In this document: positions 701-49,735 of the stretch, in pieces | Layout: each line of letters begins with the position of its first letter | Position numbering within the stretch: the first letter of the stretch is position 1 | DNA from: Deferrisomatales bacterium | GTDB taxonomy: Bacteria; Desulfobacterota; Deferrisomatia; Deferrisomatales; JACRMM01 | Length of the DNA: 50,286 bases | Assembly (NCBI GenBank): GCA_033551855.1 | Contig: JAWSUI010000028.1 | Location: forward strand, 1 to 50,286 | Reading direction: 5' to 3' | Position numbers and translations under genes: made by a program | The notes under the pieces: generated by a model | The model's input: the letters and a program-made list of their open reading frames with translations, nothing else | Databases searched by the model: none | What the model was told of the DNA's origin: nothing

Positions 701-729
701 CCTTTACCATGCCGGGAAAGCGCATACAA
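701..729 (-). promoter_or_regulatory. Putative sigma70-type promoter for fliN
   Basis: TTGTAT-N17-TAAAGG with TG upstream of the -10; the -10 is imperfect. Confidence 0.4.
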
Positions 730-742
730 GCGGGCCTGTCTG

Positions 743-946
743 CCTGCATCCACCGGCTGGTCGCCAAGCGGAGTCCGGGAGCCCCTGCGTTTCGCCCCGC
801 GATCCGCGGCAATTCAAAGAGGTGCCCCAGCAGTCCCCGGTGCGCCGGGCTTCACCCGCTTGCGCCGGCCTCGTCGGGTCGGTGGATGCGGTGCGGGGCT
901 GCACTCCTGGGCTCCCGGACTCCGCCCCGCAATCTGCGGATTCTGG
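743..946 (-). repeat. ~205-bp inverted-repeat (MITE-like) element, copy A
   Basis: Reverse complement of 743-933 aligns ungapped to 46160-46350 (26 mismatches in 191 nt, counted by eye); perfect 17-bp internal stem GCGGAGTCCGGGAGCCC/GGGCTCCCGGACTCCGC. Confidence 0.9.
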
Positions 947-950
947 TCTG

Positions 951-993
951 CCTGAATCCACCTCCAGCTCGGCGAGCGGGGTCCGGGAATCCA
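951..993 (-). repeat. Partial tandem copy of the same element end
   Basis: cctgaatccacctccagctcggcgagcggggtccgggaatcc resembles 743-784 cctgcatccaccggctggtcgccaagcggagtccgggagccc; both are preceded by gtctg. Confidence 0.6.
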
Positions 994-1018
994 GCGCCCC
1001 CCGGGGCCGCGCGGGCCC

Positions 1019-1564
1019 TCACTGCCCGGGGCCGGACCTCCCCTGCTCCAGCCGCTGGGTGAGCTCCCGAACCCGATCCGCCGGCATGTGGTCGAAGATT
1101 CTTCCCACGTTGCGGCCGGGCAGCCGCTCGAGGATGGCCAGCGCCAGGTCGTCGTCCATCCCTTCCAGGGCCAGGGAAGCCTCCCGAGGCCTCATGGCGC
1201 CGTAGACCCGGGAGATCCGCTCGAGGCGCTCATCGACCAGCTTGTCCCGGCGGGCGATGTCGGCCTCCACGGCACGTCGCAGGGCCTGCAGCTTCTGCTC
1301 CTCTTCCGCGAGCACGTGCCGGGTCGCCTCGAGAGCGCGTTGGAGGGCCGCCAGGGACTCCTCCTGCCGCGCCAGCTCGATCTGCCGGAGCTCGATCTGC
1401 CGGTCCAGCTCCTCCAGGAGTCGCGCCCTGGCCTCAAGAGCCTCGGGGCCGTCGCGCAGGGCCGCAGGGGGCTGGGCGTGGGAGGGGGGGCAGGCCAAAG
1501 GGAGGAGGCAGAGGACGCCGCCGACGGCAGCCCGGGAGAGAAAGCGTCGGACCTCAGTGCCCAC
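1019..1564 (-). CDS. MotE/FlbB-like flagellar protein (coiled coil plus MgtE-N-like domain)
   Basis: N-terminal hydrophobic segment, coiled coil, C-terminal VYGAMRPREAS...MDDDLALAIL...GRIFDHM; follows fliJ; SD GGGAGG before GTG 1564. Confidence 0.8.
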   Translation of the reverse strand: MGTEVRRFLSRAAVGGVLCLLPLACPPSHAQPPAALRDGPEALEARARLLEELDRQIELRQIELARQEESLAALQRALEATRHVLAEEEQKLQALRRAVEADIARRDKLVDERLERISRVYGAMRPREASLALEGMDDDLALAILERLPGRNVGRIFDHMPADRVRELTQRLEQGRSGPGQ

Positions 1565-2015
1565 GGTCTTCCTCCCTGCGCCCCCGGTGTCGCGCGGCGG
1601 CGACCGCATCGATCCGGCAAGCCTCCCTTCGGCTCACGGCCGCGCGCCACGCGGCCTCGTCCCGCTCCCTGAGCTTCTCCAGGGCCTGGCGCGCCCGGTG
1701 GGCGTCGAGCACCGCCCGAGACGCGTCCTCGACCGCTCGAGAGGCGCCCTCCACGGCCTCTCTGGCTCGGCTCACTCGGCACCGCTGCAGGCCGGCGTAT
1801 CGGGAGTGCAGGCGCAGGGCCTCCGCATCCAACTCGTCCGTGCGTTTGAGGACGTCGACGTCCGATACGGCACGCCGCAGGTCCTCCTCCACGGCCTCCA
1901 GCCGGGCCCGCTCTCCTCGCAGGGTCTCCCGAGCCCGGGACAAGAACTGCTGTGCCACCTCCTCCTGCAGGCGGCGCACGGCGAGGACCCGTTCGAGCCG
2001 GAACACGAAGCCCAC
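1554..2015 (-). CDS. fliJ: Flagellar export protein FliJ
   Basis: FVFRLERVLAVR N-terminus, helical, LEKLRER and IDA near the C-terminus; directly after fliI. Confidence 0.85.
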   Translation of the reverse strand: MGFVFRLERVLAVRRLQEEVAQQFLSRARETLRGERARLEAVEEDLRRAVSDVDVLKRTDELDAEALRLHSRYAGLQRCRVSRAREAVEGASRAVEDASRAVLDAHRARQALEKLRERDEAAWRAAVSRREACRIDAVAAARHRGRREEDRGH

Positions 2016-3353
2016 TCAAGACTCCTCGGGAAACAGGCCCAGGAGCTCCCCGCGGGCGGCCTCGAGGGGCCACCCCTCCTCCACGGCCTGGGTCAGAAAG
2101 GCCTCCAGGGAATCCCGCTTTCTCACGGCCTCGTCCACATCCGCGCTCGCACCCGGCTGGTAGGCTCCGATGCTGATGAGGTCCTCGGCGCCCCGATAGG
2201 CGGCCAGGAGCCTGCGCATCCGCCCTGCGGCCCGGGAGTGGCCTGGGGTGACGAGGTCCATCATGAGGCGGCTGTTGGAAGCCAGCACGTCCACGGCGGG
2301 GTAGTGGTCGCGGGCGGCGAGCGCCCGGGAGAGCACGACGTGGCCGTCCAGGACCGACCGGACCGTGTCGGCGACCGGTTCGCTCAGATCGTCGCCCTCG
2401 ACGAGCACGGTGTACAGGCCCGTGATGGACCCCGCGCCCCTCTCCCCCATCCCCGCCCGCTCCATCAGCCGCGGCAGGGCCGCAAACACGCTGGGAGTAT
2501 ACCCCTTGGTCGTCGGGGGTTCCCCGATGGCCAGTCCGACCTCCCGCAACGCCATGGCGAACCGCGTGACGGAATCCATCAGGAGCAGCACGTCACGCCC
2601 CTGGTCCCGAAAATACTCGGCCACCGTAGCGGCCACCAGGGCACCCCGAGCTTTGACCAGGGGAGACTTCTCCGACGTGCTCACGACCACCACCGAGCGC
2701 CGGAGCCCCTCCGCCCCCAAATCCCGCTCGATGAACTCGCGCACCTCTCGCCCCCGCTCCCCGATCAACGCGATGACGTTGACGTCGGCCGAGGTGTGGC
2801 GGGCGATCATCCCCAGCAGTACGCTCTTGCCCACCCCGCTGCCGGAGAAGATCCCCATCCGCTGCCCCTTGCCGCAGGTAAGCAGACCGTCGATGACCTT
2901 CACCCCCGTGGCAAGGGGCTCGCGGATCCGCTCCCGGGAGATGGGGTTGAGCTCGCGCCCGTAGAGGGGGTACTTGCGTCGGCAGGCGGGAGGGCCCCTC
3001 TCGTCGATCGGGTTCCCGGTGCCGTCGATGACCCGGCCCAGGAGCTCCTCCCCCACCTGGCACACGCTCTGCCCGCCCGCGGCCACGACGCGGCTGCCGG
3101 GCCGGATCCCCCGCATGTCGCCGTAGGGCATCAGGAAGATCCGCCCCTCCCGGAACCCGACCACCTCGCAGGCGATGGCCCGCTGCCGTTCGAAGGCGCC
3201 CCCCTCCGGATGTACGAGGCAGATGTCCCCGACGGGGGCCTGGGGGCCCGAGGCCTCCACCACCATGCCCACCACCTGGACGACCTTCCCGTGGGGGCGG
3301 AGGACCTCCCCCGCGGCGGCAGCATGGATCTCCCGGGAGAGGTCCAGGCCCAT
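2016..3353 (-). CDS. fliI: Flagellar export ATPase FliI
   Basis: Walker A GSGVGKS, IGERGRE, DSVTRFA, GEPPTTKGY; ATG 3353 overlaps the fliH stop. Confidence 0.95.
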   Translation of the reverse strand: MGLDLSREIHAAAAGEVLRPHGKVVQVVGMVVEASGPQAPVGDICLVHPEGGAFERQRAIACEVVGFREGRIFLMPYGDMRGIRPGSRVVAAGGQSVCQVGEELLGRVIDGTGNPIDERGPPACRRKYPLYGRELNPISRERIREPLATGVKVIDGLLTCGKGQRMGIFSGSGVGKSVLLGMIARHTSADVNVIALIGERGREVREFIERDLGAEGLRRSVVVVSTSEKSPLVKARGALVAATVAEYFRDQGRDVLLLMDSVTRFAMALREVGLAIGEPPTTKGYTPSVFAALPRLMERAGMGERGAGSITGLYTVLVEGDDLSEPVADTVRSVLDGHVVLSRALAARDHYPAVDVLASNSRLMMDLVTPGHSRAAGRMRRLLAAYRGAEDLISIGAYQPGASADVDEAVRKRDSLEAFLTQAVEEGWPLEAARGELLGLFPEES

Positions 3354-4138
3354 CAAGCGCTCCGCAGCGAACGGGCGAGCTCCGCCAGTTGGGTCTCCAG
3401 GCGGGCATCGATCTCCGCGGTGGGCGTCTGGACGAGGCACCCCCCGCGCTTGACGGAGGGGTCCTCGAGAACGGTCAGCTTGCGAATGCCGTCGAAGGAC
3501 TCGAGGATCCGCGGCTTGGCCTCCAGGAGTCGCCGCAGATCCTCCGGATGCACCCGCAGGGTGAGGTTCTCCCGCTCCACGAGCAACTGGAGAGCGCGCT
3601 CCACCACCCGGATGACGGCCTCCTCGTCCCTCTCGGCGAGGGGACCGAGGAGGCGGCCGACCAGGGTCAGCGCCAGGGAGACCACCTGGCCGCGGGCGTC
3701 CTGCAGCAGCCGCTCCTTATACCCTGCGAGCTCCTCGGCGGCACGGAACAGGGCATCGGCGGCCTCCTGGAGGGCAGCTCGGCCCTCCTCTCGACCCGCG
3801 TCCAACCCCTCCCGGCGGGCCGCTTCTCCCAGAAGCCGGGCCTCCTCCCGGGCTTCGCCGAGCAGCCTCTCGGCCTGCCGGCGAGCCTCCTCCACGAGCT
3901 CTTCGCCGGAAGCCGCCGGGGCCCGCCCCGGGGGGCTTACCCCCTCCCCACCCAGCTCCGGCCACCGGTAGGTCTCGACGGCGTGCCCCGGGCCACCCGA
4001 ACCCCGCTCTTCGGCAGGCTCCAGAGGACACCAGGTGTAGGGGCGAACCCCCGTGGCGGCGTTCTTGCTCACCCCACTCCTCCCAGGCGACGGCAGCCGG
4101 AGCTTGGACGACGTGGGGCCACCCGCCCCGCGTGTCAT
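3353..4138 (-). CDS. fliH: Flagellar assembly protein FliH
   Basis: GxxxG repeats, LRVHPED, DPSVKRGGCLVQT..EIDARLETQL; alternative start GTG 4072 with a strong SD. Confidence 0.88.
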   Translation of the reverse strand: MTRGAGGPTSSKLRLPSPGRSGVSKNAATGVRPYTWCPLEPAEERGSGGPGHAVETYRWPELGGEGVSPPGRAPAASGEELVEEARRQAERLLGEAREEARLLGEAARREGLDAGREEGRAALQEAADALFRAAEELAGYKERLLQDARGQVVSLALTLVGRLLGPLAERDEEAVIRVVERALQLLVERENLTLRVHPEDLRRLLEAKPRILESFDGIRKLTVLEDPSVKRGGCLVQTPTAEIDARLETQLAELARSLRSA

Positions 4139-5145
4139 GGTATGTACTCGTCCTCCTCGCCGACGGAGAGGACGATCACGCCCTCCTCCTCCAACTGGCG
4201 AACGATTTCCGTCATGGCCGACTGTGCGTCATGGACCTCGGCGACTTTGACCGGGCCGAGGAAGGACATCTCTTCCTTCATGGTCTCGACGGCCCGCGAG
4301 CTCATGTTGCGGAACAGCTTTTCCCGAAGGGTCTCGGCGCAGCCCTTGAGGGCCAGAATGAGCGTGCGCTTGTCGGCCCGCTTGAGGATCTCCTGGACCG
4401 CTCGGTCAGGCAGGTACTCGATGTCGTCAAAGACGAACATGAACTGCCGGATGCGCCCCGCGAGGTCGGGATTCTCCTGGTCAAGCCGGTCGAGGATCTT
4501 GCGGGAGGCAGAGCGACCCAGGCGGTTGAGGACCTCGGCCACGGCCTTCACGCCGTGAACCTCCACCGAAGCGCCCGCCAGAGTGATCATCTTCTGGTCG
4601 AGCACCGTCGAGATCTTCTGTACGGCCTCGGGGCTGATCTCCTCCAGGCTCGCCATGCGCCGGGCCACCTCGATCTGGAGGTCTGGAGGCAGGCTCGCGA
4701 GGGCCTGGGCGGCCTTGCCGGCCCCCAATTGACACAGGATGAACGCGATGGTCTGAGGGTGCTCTCGCTGGATGATCTTGGACAGGAGCCGCGGGTCGGC
4801 CCTGCGCAGGCTTGCGAACCCCTCGCCCTGGTCCAGTTGTCTGTTCAGGCGGGCGAGGATCTCTCGGCACCTCTCCGGGGGCAGGCTCCGGCGCAGGATC
4901 TTCTTGGCGTACTCCGCCCCGCCCTGGAGCACGTAGCCCCGGGCCAGGGCCAGCGTGTGGAACTCCTCGAGAACGGCGTGGGCCTCTTCGGGCGACGCCT
5001 TTTCCAGAGCGGCGATCTCCCGGGTCAACTCCTGAATCTCCTCGTCGCGCAGGTGCGGGAAGACGGCCTCGGAGGCCTTCTCCCCCAGCGCGAGCAGGAA
5101 AACCGCCGCCTTGCGGAGCCCGGAAGGCTGCTCTGCCTCCGCCAT
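4135..5145 (-). CDS. fliG: Flagellar motor switch protein FliG
   Basis: RKAAVFLLALG, GGAEY, EHPQTIA, MFVFDDI, NMSSRA motifs. Confidence 0.95.
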   Translation of the reverse strand: MAEAEQPSGLRKAAVFLLALGEKASEAVFPHLRDEEIQELTREIAALEKASPEEAHAVLEEFHTLALARGYVLQGGAEYAKKILRRSLPPERCREILARLNRQLDQGEGFASLRRADPRLLSKIIQREHPQTIAFILCQLGAGKAAQALASLPPDLQIEVARRMASLEEISPEAVQKISTVLDQKMITLAGASVEVHGVKAVAEVLNRLGRSASRKILDRLDQENPDLAGRIRQFMFVFDDIEYLPDRAVQEILKRADKRTLILALKGCAETLREKLFRNMSSRAVETMKEEMSFLGPVKVAEVHDAQSAMTEIVRQLEEEGVIVLSVGEEDEYIP

Positions 5146-6683
5146 CACTCCTCCGTCATCCAGCTCCGCAGGAGCTGGGCGGCCACTTCGGGCTCGGCGT
5201 GGACCATCTCCGAGAGCCTGGCTCGGAGGGCTTCCCCCTTCAGGGGCTGGGCAGTGACGGCCACGCCTCCCGGGGAGCCCCCTTCCTGCGCTTGAGCCGC
5301 GAGCCTGCGCTCCAGCTCGGCCACCGTCACGGGTTCCGTGATCTCCGACGGCCCCCGGGAGGCCCCGAGCCACCGCAGCCCCGGACGGACAACCCCGAAT
5401 ACCACGAGGAGGGCCACGAAGGAGACCGCCCCGAAACGGGCGAGTTGGGAGGCGAGCCCCGGGTCCCATCGCGTGGTCGGTTCCTCCGGTATCTCCGCTG
5501 GGCGAAACGGGATGCTCGTCACCTCGACCTCGTCCCCCCGCGACGTGTCGGCCCCGACCGCCTTTTCCACCAGGGCCCGGATCCCCGCCAGCTCCTCAGG
5601 CGACCGGGGGACGAACTCCCGTGTGCCGCCGCCCTCCCGGTAGGTGCCGTCCACGGCCACCGCGACCGTGAGCCGGTCCAGGGACCCCGGGGCCCTCTGG
5701 ACCCGGGTCACCCTCTTGGAGACCTCGTAGCTCACCGTCTCGGAATCCCGGATGGACACCGGCCGGCTGCCATCCCCCGTGCCCCCCGGTCCGGACTCGG
5801 TGTGCCGCTGCTCGCTGCGCACGGCTACGGCCTCGGGGTCGAAGACCTCCGCGGTCTCCTCCACCCGGTCGAAGTCGAATCGGGCCGACACCTGTACCAC
5901 CGCCGTCCCGGACCCGAGAACCCGCTCGAGCATCTCACGAATCCGTCGCTCCGCCTCCCCCTCGTAGGCCCGCTTGTGCTCGAGCTGGCTCGAGGCCAGG
6001 AAACCGACCTCGTCGTCCGAGGCCCGGTGCAACACCCGTCCCTGGGTGTCCACCACGTTGACTCGCCCGGGGTCGAGGCCCGGGACGCTCGATGAGACCA
6101 GGTACACGACTGCCTGGGTCTGTTTGACGCCGAGGCTCCGGCCGGCGCCGAGTTGGAGCACCACGGACGCCGCGGCAGGCTGCTGCTCGGTCTCGAAGAG
6201 GCGCCTCTCGGGGAGCACCACGTGCACCCGGGCTCCCTCCACGCCGTCGAGCCTCCGGATCGTCCGGGTCAGCTCCCCCTCGAGGGCCCGCGTGTAGTTG
6301 ACTTTCTGAGCAAAATCGGTGATGCCGAAACTCGACCGGTCGAAGATCTCGAACCCCACCACCCCGCCGTGGGGAACCCCCTCCCCTGCCAGGAGCAACC
6401 GCAGGTCGTACACCCGCTCCGAGGGCACCAGGACGGTGCGCCCGCCGTCCTCCAGGCGGTACGGCACGGCCTCGGACCGTAGGCGCTCCACCACCTCCGC
6501 GGCGTCATCTGCCGGGAGCCTGCCGTAGAGGACCGCGTAGTCGGGAGTACCCGCCCAGAAGGCGAGCGCCGTGAAGCCAGCGGCCAGACCCGCGGCCACC
6601 GCGAAGAAGACACCTCGCTGGGCAAGGCTCAACCCGCCCCAGAGCTGCCGAAGCTGGGTCCATGCGCTCTCCCAGAACGCCAC
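5145..6683 (-). CDS. fliF: Flagellar MS-ring protein FliF
   Basis: Two TM segments, GFEIFD, RALEGELTRTI, ARVHVVLPE, RSEQ, YEVSK. Confidence 0.95.
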   Translation of the reverse strand: MAFWESAWTQLRQLWGGLSLAQRGVFFAVAAGLAAGFTALAFWAGTPDYAVLYGRLPADDAAEVVERLRSEAVPYRLEDGGRTVLVPSERVYDLRLLLAGEGVPHGGVVGFEIFDRSSFGITDFAQKVNYTRALEGELTRTIRRLDGVEGARVHVVLPERRLFETEQQPAAASVVLQLGAGRSLGVKQTQAVVYLVSSSVPGLDPGRVNVVDTQGRVLHRASDDEVGFLASSQLEHKRAYEGEAERRIREMLERVLGSGTAVVQVSARFDFDRVEETAEVFDPEAVAVRSEQRHTESGPGGTGDGSRPVSIRDSETVSYEVSKRVTRVQRAPGSLDRLTVAVAVDGTYREGGGTREFVPRSPEELAGIRALVEKAVGADTSRGDEVEVTSIPFRPAEIPEEPTTRWDPGLASQLARFGAVSFVALLVVFGVVRPGLRWLGASRGPSEITEPVTVAELERRLAAQAQEGGSPGGVAVTAQPLKGEALRARLSEMVHAEPEVAAQLLRSWMTEE

Positions 6684-6694
6684 GGCCGCGCCCC

Positions 6695-6826
6695 TCAGCT
6701 CCCCATCCGGCGAGAGCCCCGTCGTGAGAGGCGGCCTTCCTGGACGCCCCCCCTTCTCGGGTCGGCTACCCGGGGCCCCTTCGCTGACACCGGCTCGGGC
6801 ACCAGGCCTGTCATCCCTGTGCGCAT
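6695..6826 (-). CDS. Putative 43-aa small ORF in the usual fliE position
   Basis: SD GAGGAGG 5 nt before ATG 6826; MRTGMTGLVPEPVSAKGPRVADPRRGGVQEGRLSRRGSRRMGS; stop 11 nt before fliF. Confidence 0.35.
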   Translation of the reverse strand: MRTGMTGLVPEPVSAKGPRVADPRRGGVQEGRLSRRGSRRMGS

Positions 6827-7078
6827 GACGTCCTCCTCAAGCGCCGCGTGAGACCCCGCACACCCGTCGCGCCCACCCTACACCCCCTCCGCCGCGCCTG
6901 TCCAGGCCGGTCCCCGGCCTCGATTCCTACTCGGCGCGGCAAGGAACCTCCGGAAGCCCGCGCGCCCCCTTTCACCGATCCAAGGCCCTGCGGGGAGGCC
7001 CAGCTCCGTGACCCCGACGCACGGAATCCCACCGGCGTCCCCCACACGCCGTGTTGCACCCGGAGGTTCTTCCGGCAA

Positions 7079-7235
7079 ACGACCGGGTGGGCCCGGCCAC
7101 GCAGGCAGACGGCCGCTCGACGGGAGCAGCCACCTCGAGAGCAGCCATGCCGCGAGGATTCCGGCTGCGGCGCGGGAGCGCACTTACCGTTCAGCCCGGC
7201 ATCGTCTGCCGGAGGGGGCGGGCCCACCCGGTCGT
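7079..7235. repeat. 157-bp hairpin/MITE-like element with perfect 17-bp terminal inverted repeats
   Basis: acgaccgggtgggcccg (7079-7095) and cgggcccacccggtcgt (7219-7235); inner stem ggcagacg/cgtctgcc. Confidence 0.75.
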
Positions 7236-7303
7236 CCCTGGACAACGGGTACCCGGTCACTTCCCGGATGAACCCAACCGGAGCATCTCCGGTACGCAGC
7301 CAT

Positions 7304-11471: not shown

Positions 11472-13566
11472 GGCTCACCACCTTCAGCGTGCGCAGCGGC
11501 CCCTCCACCTCGTCGTGGCTCAGGAGGACCAGGCCGGGCATCGCCCGCTCCGTGAGCCTTCTCAGGGGGAGTCGGATCGCGGGGGGTGTCAGCACCACCG
11601 GGGGGACCCGGAGGACCCCAACCTCCTCGGCCGCCTGCCCGAGGGCTCGGAGCAGGCGCTGCGCGAGCTTCGGCTCCAGGGACAGGAAGGAGCCCTGGTC
11701 GCTTCGCTGGAGGGCCCCGGTCAGGGCCTCCTCGAGGCGGTGATCCAGCGCGATGACCGGCACCCTCCCCTCGGCGTCCTGGTACTGCCTCGAGATCCCT
11801 CGCCGGAGCGCCGCTCGCGCGTGCTCGGTGAGGTCCTCGGGGTCCTTGGTGCGGGGGGCCCAGTCGGCCAGCGCCTCGAGAATGCTGCGCAGGTCTCGCA
11901 CGGCCACGCCTTCTCGCAAGAGGTTTTGGAGCACCCTCTGGACGGCCCCCAACGGGAGCAGGTCAGGCACCAACACCTCCACCAGCGCCGGGGCCTGGGT
12001 ACCCACCGCGTCGAGCAGGTTCTGGGTTTCCTGGCGGCCCAGGAGCTCGTGGGCGTTGCGGCGGACCACGTGGGCGAGATGGGCCGCGACCACCGCGGAG
12101 GGGCCCATCACGGTGCCCCCGAGCAGGCGGGCCTCCTCTGCCCGCCCTTCGGGGACCCACAGGGCCTCGCCCCCGGAGGCGGGATCCCGGGTGGGGATTC
12201 CCCCGATCCCGCTACCCAGGGCACCTGCGTCCACGACCAGCCGGTGGCCCTCCTTGAGCTCTCCCCTCCCGGCCTCCACCCCCTTGATCAGGATCACATA
12301 CTGCGCGGGGCGGAGCTGCAGATTGTCGCGGATCCGGACGGGGGGGACGACGATGCCCAGGTCCAGGGCCACCTGGCGCCGCAAGGACCGGACCCGCTCC
12401 AGGAGATCCCCCCCCTGGCCAGGATCCACCAGGTGCAGCAGCCCGTACCCCACCTCGAGCTCGAGGGCGTCGACGTGGAGGAGCTGGGTCACCTCCTCGA
12501 GGCCCTCGGGGGCTCGCGGCGTCTCCTGGGCAGCTCGCCGTCGAGCCGCCGCCTCGATTTCCCGGGCTTCCGCCTCCGTTCGCTGGCTCCGGTGCACGGC
12601 GTAGGCGGCCCCCCCCATGACGCCCGCGAGGATGCCGAAGGGCAGGAAGGGAAGTCCCGGGACCAGTCCCAGCAGAAGCAGCACCCCCGCCCCGACGCCC
12701 AGGGCGCCCGGGGCCTGGAGGAGCTGCCGCGGGAGCACCCGTCCCAGGCCCGACTGGCTGCCGGCCCGGCTGACGAGTATCCCGGCCGACGTGGAGATGA
12801 CGAGGGCGGGCATCTGGTGCACGAGGCCGTCGCCCACCGTGAGGGTGGTGTAGGTGGCCGCGGCGGCCGGGAGGGGCATCCCCTTCTGGAGCACTCCCAC
12901 CACCAGCCCGCCCAGGAGGTTGATGCCCGTGATCACCAGAGCCGCGACGGCGTCGCCCCGCACGAACTTACTGGCGCCGTCCATGGCCCCGTAGAAGTCC
13001 GCCTCGCTGGAGAGCTCCCGGCGGCGGCGGCCCGCCTCCTCCTCGCCGATCGCTCCGGCGTGGAGGTCGGCGTCGATCGCCATCTGCTTCCCGGGCAGGG
13101 AGTCCAGGGTGAAGCGCGCGCTCACCTCGGCGATGCGGGTCGTGCCCTTGGTGATGACCACGAAGTTGATCACCACGAGAATGAGGAAGATCACGATCCC
13201 CACGACGAAGTTCCCGCCCACGACGAAGTCGCCGAAGGCGGCGATGATACGGCTCACCGCCTCGGGCCCGTCGCTGCCCCGGGTGAGGATCAGGCGGGTG
13301 GAGCTGACGTTGAGCGCCAAGCGGAACAGGGTGACGATCAGCAGGGCACTGGGGAAGACGGAGAAGTCGAGGGGGCGCTCCGTGTACATCCCCAGGAGGA
13401 AGATGAGCACAGAGAGGCTGATGTTGAAGGCGAGGAGCAGATCGAGGGCGAACCTCGGCACGGGGACGACCATCAGGAAAACGATGCTCATCACCCCCGC
13501 CGCGACGAGGACACCGCTGTGACGGCTCAGCACGCTCGAAGCGGTAACGGCAATCCCTCGTTCCAT
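11461..13566 (-). CDS. flhA: Flagellar export gate protein FlhA
   Basis: Multi-TM N-terminus, RIAEVSARFTLDSLPGKQMAIDAD, FYGAMDGASKFVRGDA, VRIRDN. Confidence 0.96.
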   Translation of the reverse strand: MERGIAVTASSVLSRHSGVLVAAGVMSIVFLMVVPVPRFALDLLLAFNISLSVLIFLLGMYTERPLDFSVFPSALLIVTLFRLALNVSSTRLILTRGSDGPEAVSRIIAAFGDFVVGGNFVVGIVIFLILVVINFVVITKGTTRIAEVSARFTLDSLPGKQMAIDADLHAGAIGEEEAGRRRRELSSEADFYGAMDGASKFVRGDAVAALVITGINLLGGLVVGVLQKGMPLPAAAATYTTLTVGDGLVHQMPALVISTSAGILVSRAGSQSGLGRVLPRQLLQAPGALGVGAGVLLLLGLVPGLPFLPFGILAGVMGGAAYAVHRSQRTEAEAREIEAAARRRAAQETPRAPEGLEEVTQLLHVDALELEVGYGLLHLVDPGQGGDLLERVRSLRRQVALDLGIVVPPVRIRDNLQLRPAQYVILIKGVEAGRGELKEGHRLVVDAGALGSGIGGIPTRDPASGGEALWVPEGRAEEARLLGGTVMGPSAVVAAHLAHVVRRNAHELLGRQETQNLLDAVGTQAPALVEVLVPDLLPLGAVQRVLQNLLREGVAVRDLRSILEALADWAPRTKDPEDLTEHARAALRRGISRQYQDAEGRVPVIALDHRLEEALTGALQRSDQGSFLSLEPKLAQRLLRALGQAAEEVGVLRVPPVVLTPPAIRLPLRRLTERAMPGLVLLSHDEVEGPLRTLKVVSLEG

Positions 13567-20992: not shown

Positions 20993-21020
20993 ATTGTAGC
21001 ACAGGGCCCCCACCGATCAA
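20993..21020 (-). promoter_or_regulatory. Putative sigma70 promoter
   Basis: TTGATC-N16-TACAAT with extended -10 TG. Confidence 0.65.
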
Positions 21021-21034
21021 CGGGTGCGCCCGGT

Positions 21035-21242
21035 CCAGAATCCACCGTCAGGCTTTCGGGCGGGGTAGGGGAGCCGTGGGGCGCAGCCCCGTACCGCCTC
21101 GACCGACGCGCCCGAGCCGGCAGAAACGGGTGAAGCCGGGCGTGCCCGCTTCCTCGCCAACGCCTCGTCCGGATATCGCGGATTGCGGGGCGCAGCGGAG
21201 GGGCTCCCCGACCCCCGGCACGTGCCAGGCTTTGGATCCAGG
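21035..21242 (+). repeat. ~205-bp inverted-repeat element, copy B (diverged)
   Basis: Shares ccagaatccacc, gcagccccgtaccgc, ggtgaagcc, cgcggattgcggggcg, ggggctc and ggatccagg, in the same order, with the copies at 743 and 46143. Confidence 0.85.
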
Positions 21243-21453
21243 CCGGTCCGGATGCCTCCCTGCTCGGCAGACAGGGTCCGGGACTTCGGCAGCGAGGTTG
21301 CTCGGCGAATCTCCGACTCTCGAAGCCCCGAGGCCGTCGCCGCGTTTTCCAGCGGCGACGGCTTCGGGTATCATGGCCTCGTCGGGGCGGGGCCGCCGGG
21401 AGCGGGTCAGGTGAGTCCCATCGCCCCCGCGGGGCGACAGGAGGGTTCGACCC

Positions 21454-40666: not shown

Positions 40667-40762
40667 GAGTTTTCTCCCGCGCCTGGACCTACCTCCCGGC
40701 GGCAGGCCGGGCGAGTCGACCCGCAGCCGACAAACCCAGGGAAGGGGGTTTTCGGCCCGCTG

Positions 40763-42501: not shown

Positions 42502-42530
42502 AGGCTAGCCGAGGGGTCACGGGGTGTCAA
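42502..42530 (-). promoter_or_regulatory. Putative sigma70 promoter of purMN
   Basis: TTGACA-N17-TAGCCT. Confidence 0.7.
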
Positions 42531-42544: not shown

Positions 42545-42602
42545 CCTGGATCCGCCGCCCCACACGTGCTCGGAGCCGGGGAGCCCGCCCGCGCGCGCCC
42601 CC
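42545..42602 (-). repeat. Partial, degenerate end of the ~205-bp element facing the purM promoter
   Basis: cctggatcc...cacgtgctcggagccggggagccc resembles the reverse complement of the copy B end (cctggatcc...cacgtgccgggggtcggggagccc). Confidence 0.6.
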
Positions 42603-42647
42603 ATCGAGGCACGCCGGTCTCCTCCCAGGCCGGGGCCCCAGGAACCG

Positions 42648-42737
42648 CCGGAATCCACCACCCCATTGTGGGGCGGAGTCCGGGAGCCCAGGAGTGCAGC
42701 CCCGCAATCCGCTCGCCGACCAGCCGGTTGATCCAGG
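42648..42737 (+). repeat. Internally deleted (90-bp) copy C of the ~205-bp element
   Basis: attgtggggcggagtccgggagcccaggagtgcagccccgca differs by 1 nt from the copy A arm and joins directly to tccgctcgccgaccagccggttgatccagg. Confidence 0.9.
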
Positions 42738-42751: not shown

Positions 42752-42779
42752 TTGACCGGAGGCACCGCGACGTTACAAT
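42752..42779 (+). promoter_or_regulatory. Putative sigma70 promoter
   Basis: TTGACC-N16-TACAAT. Confidence 0.7.
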
Positions 42780-43310: not shown

Positions 43311-43352
43311 CCGGGACAGCCCGCCGGCTGCCGCGGCGGGGGCGGGCCGGGG

Positions 43353-43583: not shown

Positions 43584-43651
43584 GGGGCCTCCCGGTCGGA
43601 TGGAGGTGCACGCTGCCGAAGGTAGCAACCCCCCCGCGGCTGTCAAGCGTC

Positions 43652-44422
43652 CTGCGGGTCACCGCGGTCGGAACCGGCACCTGCGTCCCCCGCCGGGACC
43701 GCCGGGGGCCCTGCGCCCTCGTGGAGGCTCGAGGGACGCGGGTCGCGGTGGACCTGGGGCTGGGGTCCCTCCACGGGCTCCTGGAGGCCGGGGTGGAGCA
43801 CCGGCACCTGGATGCCGTGCTCTTCACCCACCTGCACGCCGACCACGTGGCCGAGCTCTCCTCCCTCCTCTTCGCGGCCAACTACGACGAGGAGCCGAGG
43901 GAGCGGCCCCTCCTCCTCGCCGGGGGGCCGGGCTTCGGCGACTTTCTCCGAGGGCTCTCGGCGCTCTTCGGGACCTGGCTGCAGCCCAGGGCCTACCGCC
44001 TGGAGGTGCGGGAGCTCGTCGCCGGCCAGACGCTGAGCATCGGCGCCCTGGTCTGCCGAACGGGAGGGGTGCGCCACATCCCCTCGAGCCTCGCGTACCG
44101 GTTCGAGCTCGAAGAGCGGGCGGCGGTGATCTCCGGAGACACGGGGCCTTCCCCCGAGCTCGAGGAATTGGCACGAGGCGCGGACCTGCTGCTCCTGGAG
44201 GCGAGCACCTCGGGAGAACGGCCCGTCCCCGTCCACCTGAGCCCGGCCCAGGCCGGCGAGCTGGCCCGCAGTGCAGCAGTGGGCCGGCTCGTCCTCACCC
44301 ACCTCTACCCCTCCGCAGACCGAGCCGGGCCCGGACCCGCAGCGGCCGCTGCCTTCGGGAAAGAGGTGCTCGTGGCCCGGGACGGGATGACCCTGGAGAT
44401 CCCCTGGGGTCGGGGAGACTGA
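43652..44422 (+). CDS. MBL-fold metallohydrolase (RNase Z-like); start codon uncertain
   Basis: LRVTAVGTGT first strand, VDLG, THLHADH, SGDT, HL, LTH; the domain begins upstream of the first canonical start at 43721. Confidence 0.85.
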   Translation: MRVTAVGTGTCVPRRDRRGPCALVEARGTRVAVDLGLGSLHGLLEAGVEHRHLDAVLFTHLHADHVAELSSLLFAANYDEEPRERPLLLAGGPGFGDFLRGLSALFGTWLQPRAYRLEVRELVAGQTLSIGALVCRTGGVRHIPSSLAYRFELEERAAVISGDTGPSPELEELARGADLLLLEASTSGERPVPVHLSPAQAGELARSAAVGRLVLTHLYPSADRAGPGPAAAAAFGKEVLVARDGMTLEIPWGRGD

Positions 44423-44443
44423 CCTCTCGGCCGCCCCCTCCCG

Positions 44444-46078
44444 TCAATCCGGCAAGGGCGAGAAGGCCGCGTGGTTGGAGGTGAACCCCGGAGGGGTCGC
44501 CGCGAGAATCGGTCCCAGGGCGGGATGGCCCCTTGCCGCGGAGAGAAGCCGGCGAAGTTCCCGCCGGGTTTCTTCGCCGGAACCCGCTGCCGTCCGGTAC
44601 AGGGAGAGATCGGGGCCGGTGGGCTCCGCCTCCGGGGAGGGCTCCAGAGTGCTGCCTCGCGGCAGGTGGAACAGGGCGAGGTTCACGAAGGTGATCCAGG
44701 ACGCATGGTCTGCGGCCCACTCCACGGTCCGCTCGGCCTCCCCCATGGTCTCCGTGGGGAGGCCGAAGAGCAGGTAGACGTAGGTGCGGATGCCGGCGTC
44801 CGAGAGGTTCCGGACCGCGACTCCCGCCTCGGCTGCCCGGGTGCCCTTCCCCATCCGATCCAGGAGACGCTGGGAAGCCGTCTCGACCCCCAGCTGGAGC
44901 AGGGCGCACCCGCCTTCGGCGAGCTCCCCCGCGAAGGCGGGGTCCAGCAGCTGTCGCTCCAGCCGGGCGAACCCGTACCAGCGCACCCCCTCCCCCCGGA
45001 GCCGCCGGGCCAGACCCCTGAGGATCGCCGGCGGCACCGCGTCGTCCGTCAGGTGAACCCGGTGGACCCCCACGGAATCCCGGGCCCGCAGGATCGCATC
45101 GGCCAGGGAGTCCGCCGGGGCAGGGCGGAACGCCTGCCGGTCCTGAGCCGCCTCGGGACAGAAGGCGCACCGGCGCCAGTAACACCCCCGGGACGCGGCG
45201 GCGGGGAGGATGGGGCCGGGGGCGAGGTACCGCCCCCAGGGGAGGCCCTCGGCATCGGGCCGGAAGCACACGGCCCGTGGCGCGGCACTCCCCGGGTTCC
45301 AAGCGCCGAGCCCGGGGGCGAGCAAGCCGGGGGTGTCCGCCGGGGGCCGCCCGCACGACAGGTGCTCCAGGGCGCTCTCCCCCGGCCCCACCACCAACCC
45401 GTCCCAGGCCTCGAAGAGCCGGGCCGGAGGGCTCACCCTCCCCGCCCACGAGGTGACCAGGCCCCCGCCGAGGATCAGGCGGCCCCGATACCCACGACGC
45501 CTCAGGTCCCCGGCGAGGGCGAAGGCCGGCAGGGCTTGGGAGAGATAGGTCACCGAGACGCCGATGATCTCGGGGTCGCCCTCGAGCAGCCCACGGGCCG
45601 CCTCCCCGAGCTCCGAAAAGAGGGGCAAGGCCTCCGGTTCGCGGGCCGCGGCCAGGAGGTCCGCCGAAGACAGGGGCGAGAGCGGGGGCATCGCCAGGTC
45701 CGAGATGCGAAACCGGCCCCCCCGGGCCCGCGACAGGGCCGCCCAACCCTCGGCCACCCCGTCGGCGGCCGACCGGTACTGGGCCCACCGCCGGTAGGTC
45801 TCGGGGCGCCGCAGCGCCTCGAGGGCGGCAGGGGACCGGCGCGCGGCCCGACGCGCCGAAGAGAGAAGAGCCCCCTTCGCCCCGGCCTCCTCCAAGGCCC
45901 GGGCCGCGGCCTCCAAGGAGATGGGGGAGAGCAGACGCTCCTGGACCTCCAGGTTCAGGTCGGCCAGGGCCACGTCCACGCCCCGGGCTCGCAGGTGGCC
46001 CGCGAGGACCAGCAAACCCGGCGGCGGCTCGCAGGCCTTGGCGTGGGGCGGGTTTACCAGGAGGAGCGGGCGCCTCAC
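44444..46078 (-). CDS. Cobalamin-binding radical SAM protein
   Basis: LLVNPP...PPPGL N-terminus, [17 protein letters not shown] (CX3CX2C), GVET, LFGLPTE; likely start GTG 46078. Confidence 0.88.
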
Positions 46079-46142
46079 CGCGGGCCTCGTCCCCGGAGCG
46101 CCCCGACCCCGCTCTCCTGCGAGGCGGGAGATCCTGGCGGGG

Positions 46143-46350
46143 CCGACATCCGCCACCACATCGTCGGGCGGGGTCCGGGACCCCCGGAGAGCAGCCCCGT
46201 ACCGCATCGACCGGCCGGCCGCGTTCGGCGCAGGCCGGTGAAGCCCGGCGCACCGGGGACTGCCGGGACACCTCTTCGAATTGCCGCGGATTGCGGGGCG
46301 AAACGCAGGGGCTCGCGGGCTCCGCTCGCCGACCAGCCGGTGGATCCAGG
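46143..46350 (+). repeat. ~205-bp inverted-repeat element, copy D
   Basis: Ungapped match to the reverse complement of copy A; ends in ggtggatccagg. Confidence 0.9.
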
Positions 46351-46364
46351 CGGGGTGTGCCGGC

Positions 46365-46394
46365 TTGCCGCCTCGTCGGGGGGTGGGGTATACA
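46365..46394 (+). promoter_or_regulatory. Putative sigma70 promoter of proS-pyrF-rlmB
   Basis: TTGCCG-N18-TATACA. Confidence 0.55.
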
Positions 46395-46437
46395 AGCGGG
46401 TCATTCCCAAAGCGCGAACCCTTTCGCCGAGGCGTCC

Positions 46438-48147
46438 ATGGACTATTCGAAACTGCTGCTCCCCACCCTCAAGGAGGAGCCCGCCGAAGCGGAGGTCGTG
46501 AGCCACAAGCTCATGCTCCGGGCGGGGATGATCCGCAAACTCGCGGCGGGAATCTACTCGTATCTTCCCGCGGGCCTGCGCGTCCTGCGCAAGGTGGAGG
46601 CGATCGTCCGGGAGGAGATGAACCGGGCCGGCGCCCAGGAGCTCCTCCTCCCCGCGGTCCAGCCGGCCGAGCTCTGGAAGGAGTCGGGACGCTGGGAGTT
46701 CTACGGCAAGGAGCTCCTCCGCTTCAAGGACCGGCACGAGCGTGACTGCTGTTTGGGGCCGACCCACGAAGAGGTGATCACCGACCTGGTCCGCCGCGAC
46801 ATCCGCTCCTACCGGCAGTTGCCGATCAACCTCTACCAGATCCAGACCAAGTTCCGCGACGAGATCCGTCCCCGGTTCGGCCTCATGCGGGGGCGGGAAT
46901 TCACCATGAAGGACGCGTACTCCTTCGACGCGGACGAGGCCGGCGCCGACGAGAGCTATCGGAAGATGGTCGATGCCTACGTGCGGATCTTCCAGCGGTG
47001 CGGATTGGAGTTCGTCCCCGTGGAGGCCGACTCGGGCGCCATAGGGGGCAGCTTCTCCCACGAGTTCATGGTCCTGGCCGAGTCCGGGGAGGATGCCGTG
47101 GCCGCCTGCCGCGCCTGCGGGTACGGCGCAAACGTCGAGAAGGCCGAGGTGCGTGCGCCCGAGCCCGAACCGGTCGCCGCGGCGGGGCCCATGGAGAGGG
47201 TGGACACTCCGGAACAGCGCACCGTGGAGGAGATTGCCGCGTTTCTCGGGGTTCCGCCCAGCACCGTGGCGAAGACCCTCCTGTTCGAGACGGATCGGGG
47301 GACGGTCGCCGTGTGCGTGCGGGGCGACCACGACGCCAATCCCACGAAGGTGAAGAACCTCCTGGGGGCAAACACCGCAGAGCTGGCGGGCGAGGCCGCC
47401 GTGCGCCAGGTGACCGGGGCTCCCGTCGGCTATGCCGGACCGGTGGGTCTGCCGGTGCCCGTCTACCTGGACCAGGCCCTGCGCGGCGCCGGGGGGTGGG
47501 TCGTGGGCGCCAACCAGGCGGGATCCCACTACCGGGACGCGGTGCCGGGGCGCGACTTCCGGGCCGCGGGGTGGGCCGACCTGCGCACCCTCCGCGCCGG
47601 GGATCCCTGTCCCCGGTGCGGGCAGCCGATCGCCGTCAAGCGCGGCATCGAGGTGGGGCACGTGTTCAAGCTCGGCACCAAGTACTCCGAGAGCCTCCGG
47701 GCAACCTTCCTCGACGCCCAGGGGACCGAGCGCCCCCTCATCATGGGGTGCTACGGCATCGGGGTGGGGCGCACCGCCGCCGCGGCCATCGAGCAGAACC
47801 ACGACGCCGACGGGATCGTCTGGCCCGTGCCCTTGGCGCCGTGGGAGGTGGTGGTCTTGCCGCTCCAGGTCAAGGACGACGCCACGGCCCGCGTGACAGC
47901 CGACCTGGTCCGGGGCCTCGAGGCGCAGGGAGTCGAAGTCCTGGTGGACGACCGGGACGAGCGCCCAGGGGTCAAGTTCAAGGATGCCGACCTCCTGGGC
48001 ATCCCGCTGCGGCTCACCGTGGGACCCAAGGGGCTGGCCCAGGGGGTCGCGGAGGCCAGGGAGCGCAAGAGCCGAGCCGAGCACCGGGTGCCCCTCGCCG
48101 AGGCGGCGGCCTGGGCCGCGGCCTGGGTGCAGGAGCGGCGCACATGA
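46438..48147 (+). CDS. proS: Prolyl-tRNA synthetase (bacterial type with editing domain)
   Basis: [47 protein letters not shown]. Confidence 0.98.
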
Positions 48148-48869
48148 CCGCCCGGGATCGCCTGATCTTCGCCCTGGACGTCGCCACCGCCGGGGAGGCC
48201 CGGGGCTGGGTGCGGCGTCTCGACACCGAGGTAGGGGCCTTCAAGGTGGGGCTGGAGCTCTTCACCTCCCAGGGGCCCGCCCTCGTCCGCGACCTGGTGA
48301 ACCGCGGGTGCCGGATCTTCCTGGACCTGAAGCTCCACGACATCCCGGCCACCATGGCCGGGGCGGCCCGGGTCGCCGGGGGCTCGGGGGCCTTCCTCGT
48401 CAACGTCCACGCGCTGGCGGGCCCTGAGGGGATGGCGCGGGCAGGAGAGGCCGCCCGGGAGGGGGCTCGGGCCGCCGAGCGGCCCGAGCCGAAGGTGCTG
48501 GCGGTGACCGTCTTGACGAGCCACGGCCCCTCGGACCTGGAGGCGGTCGGGCTGCGGGGACCCGCGTCCGAGGCGGTCCTCCGCCTGGCCTTCCTCGCCC
48601 GCTCCGCCGGCCTCGACGGAGTCGTGGCGTCGCCGCTCGAGGCCTCGTCCATCCGCCGGGCCTGGCCCGAAGCCCTCATCGTCACCCCCGGGGTCCGGCC
48701 GGCCGGGTTCGACGCCGGGGACCAGACCCGCATGGACACCGCCGCGGGCGCCCTGCGCGCGGGGGCAGACTACCTGGTGGTGGGGCGCCCCATCCGCGAG
48801 GCGACGGACCCGGTGGCGACGGCCCGGGCCCTCGTGGCAGAGATGGAGGGCGCCGAGGGACCCGCGTGA
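48144..48869 (+). CDS. pyrF: Orotidine-5'-phosphate decarboxylase
   Basis: [35 protein letters not shown]. Confidence 0.97.
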
Positions 48870-48888
48870 CGACTCTCGTGAGCCCCGG

Positions 48889-49641
48889 GTGACTGCGGGC
48901 GAGTGGGTCTACGGCCGCCGGCCGGTGGCCGAGCACCTCGCCGCGGCCCCCGACACCTGTCGCGAGCTCCTCGTCGCACGGGAGGGTCCCCTCCCGGCGG
49001 CGATCGCCGAGGCCGCGCGGCGCCTCGGGCTGCCGGTCCGGGAAGTACCCCGGGCCGCGCTGGACCGGGCGTCCGGCGGGGGCAACCACCAGGGGGTGTG
49101 CCTGTGCGTGGGCGGCTGGGCGTACGCCGCCCTCGAGGACTTGGCGGCGCGCGCCCGGGCGCCGGGGCGGCTTCCGCTCCTCCTGGCGCTGGACTGCGTC
49201 CAGGACCCCCGCAACCTGGGGGCGGTCCTGCGGGTCGCCGACGGCGTCGGCGCCGCGGGCGTCGTCATTCCCCAGGACCGCGCGGCGGGTCTGAGCGCCG
49301 CGGCGGCCCGCACCGCCTCCGGAGCCCTGGCCTCGGTCCCGGTGGCGAGGGTGGTCAACCTCGCCCGGAGCCTGGACGCCCTGCGCGGTGAGGGGTTCGA
49401 GATCCTCGGAGCCGACGGGAGCGCGCCGGTGGACCTCTATGCGGCGCCGGTGCGGTTCCCGTGCGTGGCGGTCTTCGGCGGGGAGCACCGGGGGATACGT
49501 CCCAACGTCGCGAAGCGCTGCGGCCTGCGGGTCTCGATCCCCATGGGGGGGGCAGTAGGCAGCCTCAACGTGGCCGTGGCCTGCGGGGTGGTGAGCTACG
49601 AGCTGCGCCGCCGCTTCGTCACCCGGGCGCAGCGCCCGTAG
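48889..49641 (+). CDS. rlmB: 23S rRNA (Gm2251) methyltransferase RlmB (SpoU family)
   Basis: YGRRPV, HQGV, DPRNLGAVLR, GGEHRGI, IPM..SLNVAVA. Confidence 0.92.
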   Translation: MTAGEWVYGRRPVAEHLAAAPDTCRELLVAREGPLPAAIAEAARRLGLPVREVPRAALDRASGGGNHQGVCLCVGGWAYAALEDLAARARAPGRLPLLLALDCVQDPRNLGAVLRVADGVGAAGVVIPQDRAAGLSAAAARTASGALASVPVARVVNLARSLDALRGEGFEILGADGSAPVDLYAAPVRFPCVAVFGGEHRGIRPNVAKRCGLRVSIPMGGAVGSLNVAVACGVVSYELRRRFVTRAQRP

Positions 49642-49706
49642 ATCCCCGGCTCCCGGGGGACCGCCCGGACGGGACGGATCGTCGGGTTTTGGCCGTTCTT
49701 TTACCC

Positions 49707-49735
49707 TTGACACCCCCCACCCCATCCGCTAGCAT
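49707..49735 (+). promoter_or_regulatory. Sigma70 promoter of the tRNA-tuf operon
   Basis: TTGACA-N17-TAGCAT. Confidence 0.75.

Follow-up and report, generated by a model that had tools for sequence, protein, structure and literature searches.

A MITE with IS1380-type ends in fixed register upstream of predicted promoters in a Deferrisomatales bacterium

Insertion of mobile elements at a set distance from bacterial promoters has been described for elements with Mutator-like transposases. The TnGBS ICEs, ISLre2 (p-MULT 3) and the ISKra4 group (p-MULT 4) land at primary-sigma promoters, 15-17 bp before the -35 box, in one orientation if the two repeats differ and bidirectionally if they match, and a contact with RNA polymerase has been proposed (Guerillot et al. 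2014, PMC3942029); IS1380 and MITE each have 0 occurrences in that paper. The IS1380 family (ISEcp1, ISPme1) is known for an outward promoter and for capture of adjacent DNA, and the accessible part of the review that describes this (PMC9330008) makes no mention of promoter-registered insertion for IS1380. One gut IS1380 element is described as inserting mostly within genes (PMC10592638), and insertion sequences near promoters are reported in general terms, with the register not given, in PMC9208149. The ISAba32/ISAjo2 group of IS1202 targets xrs/dif sites, and for the long-duplication IS1202 groups the same sources, as far as available, report that no target was found (bioRxiv 10.1101/2022.12.17.520857; PMC10132070). 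Yeast Ty1 and Ty3 integrate upstream of Pol III genes, with reported contacts between integrase and Pol III/TFIIIB (PMC13269885, PMC3942029). Our search of the literature on IS1380 and IS1202 found no report of promoter-registered insertion, an absence that is weakly tested as the same search also overlooked PMC3942029.

We followed up a 12-bp motif found near seven predicted promoters of one window, the whole stretch of 50,286 nucleotides analysed from a Deferrisomatales bacterium. The first-pass annotation of this window placed the motifs 13, 14, 15, 14, 14, 14 and 14 bp upstream of the -35 box, and all seven motifs, spacers and -35/-10 hexamers are where it located them. It also knew of no matching system, which is wrong, as TnGBS, ISLre2 and ISKra4-group elements land 15-17 bp before the -35 boxes of sigmaA promoters (PMC3942029). 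A non-coding MITE of ~208 bp carries the 12-bp motif as its terminal inverted repeat, and the motif is very unlikely to be a regulator site. All promoters discussed here are consensus predictions.

The element and its sites in the window

Five of the window sites are ends of the element. The fliN-facing site holds a full copy on the minus strand (743..946; nhmmer 189 bits) with a 4-bp target-site duplication (TSD; 739-742 and 947-950), whose right terminus (743-754) points toward the predicted fliN promoter (701..729, minus strand; -35 TTGTAT at 729-724, 17 bp, -10 TAAAGG at 706-701; spacer 13); the ORF downstream (628-332) is FliN (PF01052). In tandem behind this copy lies an older right-end remnant (951..1000, minus strand, upstream limit approximate; terminus 951-962), which retains the motif and an arm score over background (2.5e-4), with a 4-bp TSD between remnant and full copy. 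A similar arrangement is present at proS, where a full copy on the plus strand (46143..46350; 187 bits; 5-bp TSD at 46138-46142 and 46351-46355) directs its right terminus (46339-46350) toward the predicted proS promoter (46365..46394, plus strand; -35 TTGCCG, 18 bp, -10 TATACA; spacer 14; proS NF006625 above cut-off), and an older stacked right-end remnant (46090..46137, plus strand, upstream limit approximate; terminus 46126-46137) has an arm score over background (1e-4). The proS promoter is kept in the relatives G001, G002 and G005. At the 20.8-kb gene the motif is likewise an element end, as annotated, and the end that faces the promoter is the left one (21035-21046): the full copy (21035..21242, plus strand; 135 bits) is bounded by a 5-bp TSD (21030-21034 and 21243-21247) and precedes a predicted promoter on the minus strand (20993..21020; -35 TTGATC at 21020-21015, 16 bp, -10 TACAAT at 20998-20993; spacer 14). 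The called gene there (20836-20468) had no match in Pfam/NCBIfam searches.

Between the divergent purM and flavodoxin promoters lies a decayed composite of MITE pieces (42545..42737, unstranded) with outward termini at 42545-42556 and 42726-42737 and a left-end fragment inside it (42647-42706); arm similarity is over background at both ends (1e-4 for purM and 4e-3 for flavodoxin). The predicted purM promoter (42502..42530, minus strand; -35 TTGACA at 42530-42525, 17 bp, -10 TAGCCT) and the predicted flavodoxin-gene promoter (42752..42779, plus strand; -35 TTGACC, 16 bp, -10 TACAAT) both have spacer 14; purM matches TIGR00878 above cut-off and the other gene has flavodoxin/FMN-reductase Pfam matches. 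The G001 orthologue of this region has two -35 boxes 9 bp apart and lacks the motif. The five element termini of the original annotation divide into ends of full TSD-bearing copies (fliN, 20.8-kb gene, proS) and ends of a decayed composite (purM, flavodoxin).

The two motifs described as standing alone are candidate remnants. The terminus-like 12-mer at yceD (40682..40693, minus strand; 10.9 bits) lies 15 bp before the -35 box (TTGACG, 40666-40661) of a predicted promoter with -10 TATAAT (40644-40639) of yceD (PF02620), with neither an nhmmer match nor sub-terminal (arm) similarity to the element (background fraction 0.29). The weak 12-mer at the tRNA-tuf cluster forms, with its predicted promoter, the interval 49681..49735 (plus strand; spacer 14; -35 TTGACA at 49707-49712, -10 TAGCAT at 49730-49735). 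It scores 4.8 bits, a value reached by 0.7% of random 12-mers, is devoid of sub-terminal similarity to the element (background fraction 0.14) and may be chance or an old remnant; the orthologous site in G001 (L252) carries a full MITE copy at spacer 13. An Rfam scan of the window matched tRNAs only and not the MITE, and the DNA fold of the proS copy was no better than that of shuffles (z 0.39), so that a structured-RNA reading is not needed.

The genome of the window (G000, a draft assembly of 132 contigs, compared here with G001, G002 and G005) holds 241 non-overlapping MITE matches, 121 of them near-full, with imperfect 12-bp inverted repeats as termini. Exact 4-bp TSDs flank 40 of the 121 near-full copies (1.3 in shuffled sequence) and exact 5-bp TSDs flank 13 (0.3 in shuffled), giving 53/121 in total, and exact 8- or 9-bp repeats flank 0/121. 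Only 3 of 200 copies lie within crudely called genes. Thirteen copies are stacked, with the TSD mostly between neighbours, and one promoter (C74) has a left MITE end in G000 and a right end in G001 and G002; such tandem stacking and opposite-orientation insertion at one site indicate active re-targeting. Several 'stand-alone' motifs keep visible arm remnants. An exact-pattern scan of genome contigs for an internal element word gave 0 matches.

Register to predicted promoters

Of the 242 genomic occurrences of the motif GGYDGRTNCWGG, 25 are followed by TTG at spacer 13, 11 at 14, 5 at 12 and 4 at 15; no other offset from 0 to 39 has more than 4, with ~1.7 expected per offset. The genome-wide distance scan proposed in the annotation thus yields a peak; the register exists, and the suggested range of 13-15 bp narrows to 13-14. 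Viewed from the promoter side, a terminus-like 12-mer (threshold at least 9 bits) precedes predicted TTG[AC][CT]-N16-18-TAnnnT promoters (394 in all) at spacer 13 in 31 cases and at spacer 14 in 16, with no more than 4 at any remaining offset from 0 to 59, which places the MITE upstream of ~12% (47/394) of strictly predicted promoters. Viewed from the element side, TTG stands at spacer 13/14 in 87 of the 154 right ends that remain once 25 weak and 13 tandem ones are taken from 192, against 1.35% at random, and TAnnnT follows 16-18 bp past this TTG in 48 of these 87. TTGAC is accompanied by a -10 in 29/51 instances at MITE sites versus 271/3764 genome-wide. Among the ends without TTG at offsets 10-17, TAnnnT is still in place at offsets 35-38 in 15/48 (0.4% at random), which argues that the whole promoter sets the register, and a T at offset 13/14 is retained in 35/48. 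Among 120 full copies, 56 have no TTG at 13/14 of either end. Of the 98 TTG-bearing right ends, 92 point to the 5' end of a gene in the same direction, and the orientation bias of the MITE is 56:8.

The check for empty sites and TSDs outlined in the annotation found both, the 4-5-bp TSDs above and many orthologous promoters in relatives that are empty of the element. Orthologous sites in G000 lacked an element match in 30/41 cases, some of these 'empty' sites being decayed remnants or projection errors (questionable examples include C11:16049, C105:1304 and C12:62899). Element ends in the relatives have TTG at 13/14 in 23/37 (G001), 8/10 (G002) and 1/4 (G005).

Autonomous IS1380-family relatives and the anchored cut

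Autonomous IS1380-family elements of ~1.85 kb, encoding a 504-aa transposase, are bounded by MITE-like termini, and the MITE-type terminus bounds IS1380 elements across several phyla; an independent repeat-pair finder recovered identical IS1380-clade ends. A 3'-only PF13701 fragment in G002 ends in the consensus terminus (18.5 bits), followed by 13 bp, TTGACG, 17 bp and TAAATT. All four full-length homologues of this fragment that were tested exceed the NF033539 cut-off, NF033539 being the sole NCBIfam match, and the predicted model of an IS1380 homologue is Tn5-like (Z 20.1, rmsd 4.2, 316 aligned). The homologue sets were made up of the best 80 of 616 and the best 80 of 596 matches. IS1380-clade right ends, chosen at 9 bits or more, have a median of 12.7 bits on the MITE profile, and TTG stands at 13/14 in 58/111 unique flanks and in 10/14 in the same phylum. 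A TSD of 4-5 bp, the usual target duplication of the IS1380 family, flanks 40 of 52 autonomous genomic copies; in these 40, mostly from related Dehalococcoidia MAGs, TTG is at 13/14 at one end in 31 and TTG or the -10 is in register in 38.

The IS1380 transposase (PF13701/NF033539, P0002 query) was not found in the 132-contig G000 draft, and nhmmer gave no match between the MITE interior and the G002 fragment; with an interior that lacks homology, the link between MITE and IS1380 rests on termini, TSD length and register. The IS1380 elements of G005 (L021/L023) belong to another clade and have right flanks out of register by eye. ISEcp1, at one site, has TTG at 20 and no -10; four Kitasatospora sites have TTG at 14 in one and no -10; and other-clade elements with clear repeats are in register in 0/9. 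The register looks clade-specific within IS1380, on weak tests. A long-duplication IS1202-type family also lies at the promoter edge used by the IS1380 clade.

TSD length and spacer are coupled. In pooled MITE and IS copies, 4-bp TSDs go with spacer 13 in 42 cases and with 14 in 5, and 5-bp TSDs with 13 in 0 and with 14 in 14 (Fisher p 5e-10, for copies that as kin are not independent). With this pairing the cut on the promoter side stays at a constant 9 bp from the -35 box, and the promoter-side TSD edge precedes the initial T of that hexamer by 9 bp, at ~-45 to -49.

Proposed mechanism, alternatives and known systems

With the nature of the element, its TSDs and register, the empty and re-hit sites and the termini and register in common with IS1380 elements established, we consider it probable that the MITE is mobilised in trans by an IS1380-clade DDE transposase and lands at a fixed register to sigma70 promoters, with RNA polymerase the inferred landmark. 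The ~504-aa Tn5-like enzyme would dock on promoter-bound sigma70 holoenzyme, possibly through sigma region 4 or the alpha-CTD side, instead of on naked DNA, and integration would leave 9 bp between the promoter-side TSD edge and the -35 downstream of it, a safe harbour in which -35, -10 and gene would all be spared. The first of the two options in the annotation, insertion of a mobile element in a set register to bound RNA polymerase, is borne out for the insertion register by TSDs, 241 copies, empty sites, stacking and IS1380 relatives, and bound polymerase is the part that we infer. A predicted complex of the transposase with sigma70 region 4 (score 0.00 versus a mark of 0.32) speaks neither way.

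The same element and targeting would result if the transposase read promoter DNA itself, as -35/-10 sequence or bendability, and needed no RNA polymerase. Most sites do have a TTG-type hexamer, sites without it commonly keep the T in register (35/48), and a degenerate -35 plus -10 could be read on naked DNA. The footprint of a Tn5-like transpososome would reach the promoter site. We nevertheless regard direct readout as unlikely, for the -10 lies ~32 bp away from the cut on the promoter side, is variably spaced (16-18 bp) and keeps its register at ends that lack TTG (15/48), fold searches with the predicted transposase model gave no sigma-like match (residues 447-504 barely covered), and the unrelated p-MULT (as described in PMC3942029) and IS1202-type transposases use the same edge.

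The other accounts are less probable. A transcription-factor or alpha-CTD site specific to the lineage and located at -50 to -61, whether spread by the element (the second option of the annotation) or co-opted, would suit the fixed helical position, which fits an activator, and the 12 of 47 promoter-linked motifs beyond any nhmmer match; it is very unlikely, since several phyla have the motif as a transposon terminus, many orthologous promoters lack it, and it is not kept independently of the element and decays along with it, with arm remnants at several 'stand-alone' cases. Random insertion followed by purifying selection for gene- and promoter-sparing copies agrees with the 197/200 copies outside called genes, and some insertions were surely purged, but it predicts a broad upstream spread instead of a 2-bp peak (31 + 16 versus at most 4 elsewhere to offset 59) and leaves the TSD-length/spacer coupling, the same-base stacking and the 56:8 orientation bias unexplained, which makes it highly improbable. 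Mobilisation by a promoter-targeting p-MULT transposase (ISKra4 or ISLre2), a family known for this habit and represented by an ISKra4 element in G001, is scarcely credible, as TSD length and termini largely rule it out: p-MULT duplications are 8-9 bp (PMC3942029) against 4-5 bp for the MITE, the G001 ISKra4 ends are unrelated to the MITE and have an 8-bp repeat, and searches of G000, G002 and G005 did not find such a transposase.

Returning to holoenzyme docking by the IS1380 clade, we lean slightly towards the view that unrelated DDE transposases have repeatedly and independently come to dock on the upstream side of sigma70 holoenzyme: in one bacterial lineage the IS1380 clade cutting 9 bp upstream of the -35 and the long-duplication IS1202/ISTde1-type at the -35 edge, and elsewhere the known Mutator-like elements. 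If true, single small transposases would bear a surface for binding RNA polymerase that has so far not been described, and the ends of MITEs would be base-exact markers of used promoters in uncultured organisms. The findings further point to a possible target for the IS1202 elements with long duplications, a group whose target was not found in PMC10132070. The MITE replaces native DNA upstream of ~-48 and may reshape upstream regulation with core promoters spared, and such elements could serve as a gene-sparing integration tool.

Promoter-registered transposition was previously described as a Mutator-like peculiarity in which RNA polymerase contact is only proposed (PMC3942029), and its occurrence in an IS1380 clade with a Tn5-like enzyme, its geometry resolved to the base, offers a one-protein system that makes the mechanism directly testable. 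Like p-MULT 3/4, the MITE/IS1380 clade lies at a fixed distance upstream of the -35, and the duplication centres are similar, lying 11-11.5 bp from the -35 in this clade and ~12 bp in p-MULT, as calculated with 16 bp and an 8-9-bp repeat. The two differ in transposase (Tn5-like IS1380, not Mutator-like), TSD (4-5 versus 8-9 bp) and spacer (13-14 versus 15-17 bp; PMC3942029), and in the MITE of ~240 copies here. The NF033539/PF13701 transposase and termini starting CC are those of the IS1380 family (ISEcp1, ISPme1; PMC9330008, in part), and the ISEcp1 terminus resembles that of the MITE. The ISAba32/ISAjo2 group, as presented in its sources, likewise consists of single-gene insertion sequences at a fixed distance and orientation to the DNA site of a host protein, with transposase-host contact proposed, but its landmark is XerC/dif, not a promoter, and its transposase is another. 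Ty1 and Ty3, from the accounts available, share the transcription machinery as landmark and harmless upstream integration; they are eukaryotic retroelements with reported contacts, whereas the contact here is putative. Promoter-registered insertion itself is known from Mutator-like elements, and what is new is the IS1380 clade and its anchored cut.

The element that carries the motif

The 12-bp motif is the terminus of a MITE. The element is approximately 208 bp long, carries the motif word at both ends and has 241 non-overlapping matches, 121 of them near-full, in the draft assembly (4.24 Mb, 70% GC) that includes the window as contig C28. Exact flanking duplications of 4 bp were found at 40/121 and of 5 bp at 13/121 near-full copies (shuffled flanks, 1.3 and 0.3). 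These duplications, together with the multi-copy and non-coding nature of the sequence, the lack of an Rfam match and an unexceptional fold, identify it as a MITE. Of 200 copies, three are inside crudely called genes. Five copies (C23:2779-3110, C31:10460-10791, C47:21003-21314, C3:149307-149615 and C14:77676-78005) share a second repeat of ~123 bp, nested at one central position, and copies in C19 and C25 hold further nested inserts. Sequence similar to another repeat family of the window, an inverted repeat at 7079-7235 with 33-nt arms (88%), is nested in the C25 copy.

All seven motifs, spacers (bp from terminus to the TTG of the predicted -35 box) and -35/-10 hexamers of the first-pass annotation were recovered where it had placed them, and fliN, yceD, purM, flavodoxin, proS and the tRNA cluster were confirmed as downstream genes. 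Its proposal that the motif ends a longer element holds for fliN, the 20.8-kb gene and proS, which have full copies with target-site duplications (TSDs), two of the three with an older end stacked behind, and for the purM/flavodoxin sites, which belong to a decayed composite. The yceD and tRNA-tuf sites show no arm similarity to the MITE, and their status as putative remnants is unproven. A consensus-like 12-mer within a coding region at 12419-12430, with no promoter in register, is a chance match.

Register of insertion upstream of the -35 box

The spacing extends across the genome in the scan that the first-pass annotation had proposed: of 242 motif occurrences, 25 have TTG at spacer 13 and 11 have it at spacer 14, with ~1.7 expected per offset. 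The reverse scan, starting from 394 predicted promoters, gives a terminus-like word at 13/14 in 47, with at most 4 at every other offset to 59. Of 192 right ends, 25 were set aside for a weak terminus and 13 as tandem; TTG occurs in register, that is at 13/14, in 87 of the other 154 (random, 1.35%), and 48 of these 87 have TAnnnT 16-18 bp past TTG (11, 24 and 13 at 16, 17 and 18). TTGAC is accompanied by a -10 box in 29/51 cases at MITE sites versus 271/3764 genome-wide. The 48 right ends without TTG at offsets 10-17 have a -10 box at offsets 35-38 in 15 cases (random, 0.4%) and keep a T at the register in 35. A co-directional gene start is faced by 92/98 TTG-bearing right ends (median distance 115 bp); by a strict test of 120 full copies, the promoter-facing end is the right in 56, the left in 8 and neither in 56.

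With MITE and autonomous IS copies pooled, TSDs of 4 bp go with spacer 13 (42 vs 5 at 14) and of 5 bp with spacer 14 (14 vs 0), with 11 further cases at 12 or 15. TSD length thus predicts the spacer, which places the promoter-side cut at a fixed 9 bp from the -35 box.

The first-pass annotation had offered two readings, a mobile element inserting at a fixed register or a binding site spread by the element. TSDs, empty sites and sites hit repeatedly bear out the former, and absence of the motif from many orthologous promoters argues against the latter. The register is kept in the MITE copies of three relatives (23/37, 8/10 and 1/4). An orthologous site in the draft assembly was found for 41 of these 51 copies; 11 are occupied and 30 lack an element match, a few of the 30 reflecting remnants or projection error. 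In one relative (G001) the purM/flavodoxin promoters are 9 bp apart and lack the motif, one orthologous promoter bears opposite MITE ends in different genomes, and 13 copies are stacked, mostly with a TSD between. Selective retention alone cannot replace targeting, since selection by itself could yield neither the 2-bp peak nor the coupling of TSD and spacer. The element, its duplication, the fixed geometry and re-targeting are established.

A candidate mobiliser of the IS1380 family

No IS1380 transposase was found in the draft assembly. In a relative (G002), a PF13701 fragment ends in the consensus terminus, followed by 13 bp, TTGACG, 17 bp and TAAATT. Its homologues are ~504-aa NF033539 transposases whose model is Tn5-like (pLDDT 75.7; Z 20.1, rmsd 4.2, 316 aligned). 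Autonomous IS loci (155, from the best 80 of 616 and best 80 of 596 matches) had their ends set blind to the flank. Sixteen were too short, 24 lacked a terminus, 9 were tandem and 1 was a duplicate; with these removed, 58 of 111 right flanks have TTG in register (genomes 17/59, metagenomes 41/52). A separate sample from the same phylum gave 10/14 (5/19 dropped). Genomic copies with both ends have a TSD in 40/52; these 40, mostly from related Dehalococcoidia MAGs, have TTG at one end in 31 (left 19, right 11, both 1) and TTG or a -10 box in register in 38. The register is thus fixed and orientation varies by lineage. In Dehalococcoidia loci L042, L063, L069 and L073, the promoter-distal flank often leads into a further repeated end, which starts TGTTCAGA.

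In small tests of other IS1380 elements, the register was found in 0/9 with clear repeats among 30 loci and not at one ISEcp1 site, and 1/4 Kitasatospora sites had TTG, without a -10 box. The 4 distinct sites of a distant actinobacterial IS1380 (L181-L197, NZ_CP109408.1) show a duplicated target resembling TAG in place of promoter register. The MITE interior is not homologous to the G002 fragment; termini, TSD and register suggest that a related transposase mobilises the MITE.

A shared promoter edge and comparison with known elements

In the draft assembly, 11/3751 TTGAC words versus 0/3758 GTCAA words have a short tandem duplication that stops at the -35 edge, with one control word giving 11/18537. 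Tandem duplications of 12-18 bp that stop at the -35 box were noted in C31, C73 (two), C74, C9, C75, C77, C14, C18, C2, C88, C11, C60, C99 and C4; they often have a TG(T)-starting linker, occur with or without a MITE, and are plausibly explained as footprints of IS1202-type (NF033594) elements. Such IS1202/ISTde1-type elements were collected from G000 (the assembly under study; C92, L312), relative G005 (L309, L313) and loci L376-L404; L309 encodes a 392-aa transposase over the NF033594 cut-off. By automatic count, TTG of predicted -35 boxes lies 15-17 bp from an end in 13/26 elements; the end finder used inner repeats at four loci, of which, by eye, L392, L394 and L404 give 16-17 and the fourth has an N gap. 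Intact 15-16-bp repeats end exactly at TTGAC in 4/4. PMC10132070 reports no target found for the long-duplication IS1202 group. In metagenomic loci L104 and L173 an IS1202-like end stands where the -35 box is expected after an IS1380 right end and 13 bp, so that two families are stacked at one promoter edge. At two loci (L311, G000:C117; L310, G001:C240) an integrase-like ORF with a weak NF033594 match precedes a gene that probably encodes an ATPase (Walker A motif judged by eye), which makes up a putative two-gene element.

The transpososome would dock on promoter-bound sigma70 holoenzyme, with strand transfer about one helical turn upstream of the -35 box, sparing the predicted promoter and gene. 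This position presumably adjoins sigma region 4 and the proximal alpha-CTD site. Direct DNA readout by the transposase is less favoured than a protein landmark, because the register tracks the -10 box of predicted promoters and unrelated transposases use the same edge.

The first-pass annotation knew of no matching system. PMC3942029 describes insertion of TnGBS, ISLre2 and ISKra4-group elements upstream of sigmaA -35 boxes, at a distance of 15-17 bp and with repeats of 8-9 bp, and proposes contact with RNA polymerase. Our literature search found no promoter-registered insertion by IS1380, a weak test as the same search missed PMC3942029. The insertion habit is real and strong, of a kind known in p-MULT elements and, on that weak test, new for IS1380. 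The MITE works like TnGBS, ISLre2 and ISKra4-group elements in inserting at a fixed distance upstream of the -35 box, but is not a member of their group, as TSD, termini and transposase all differ.
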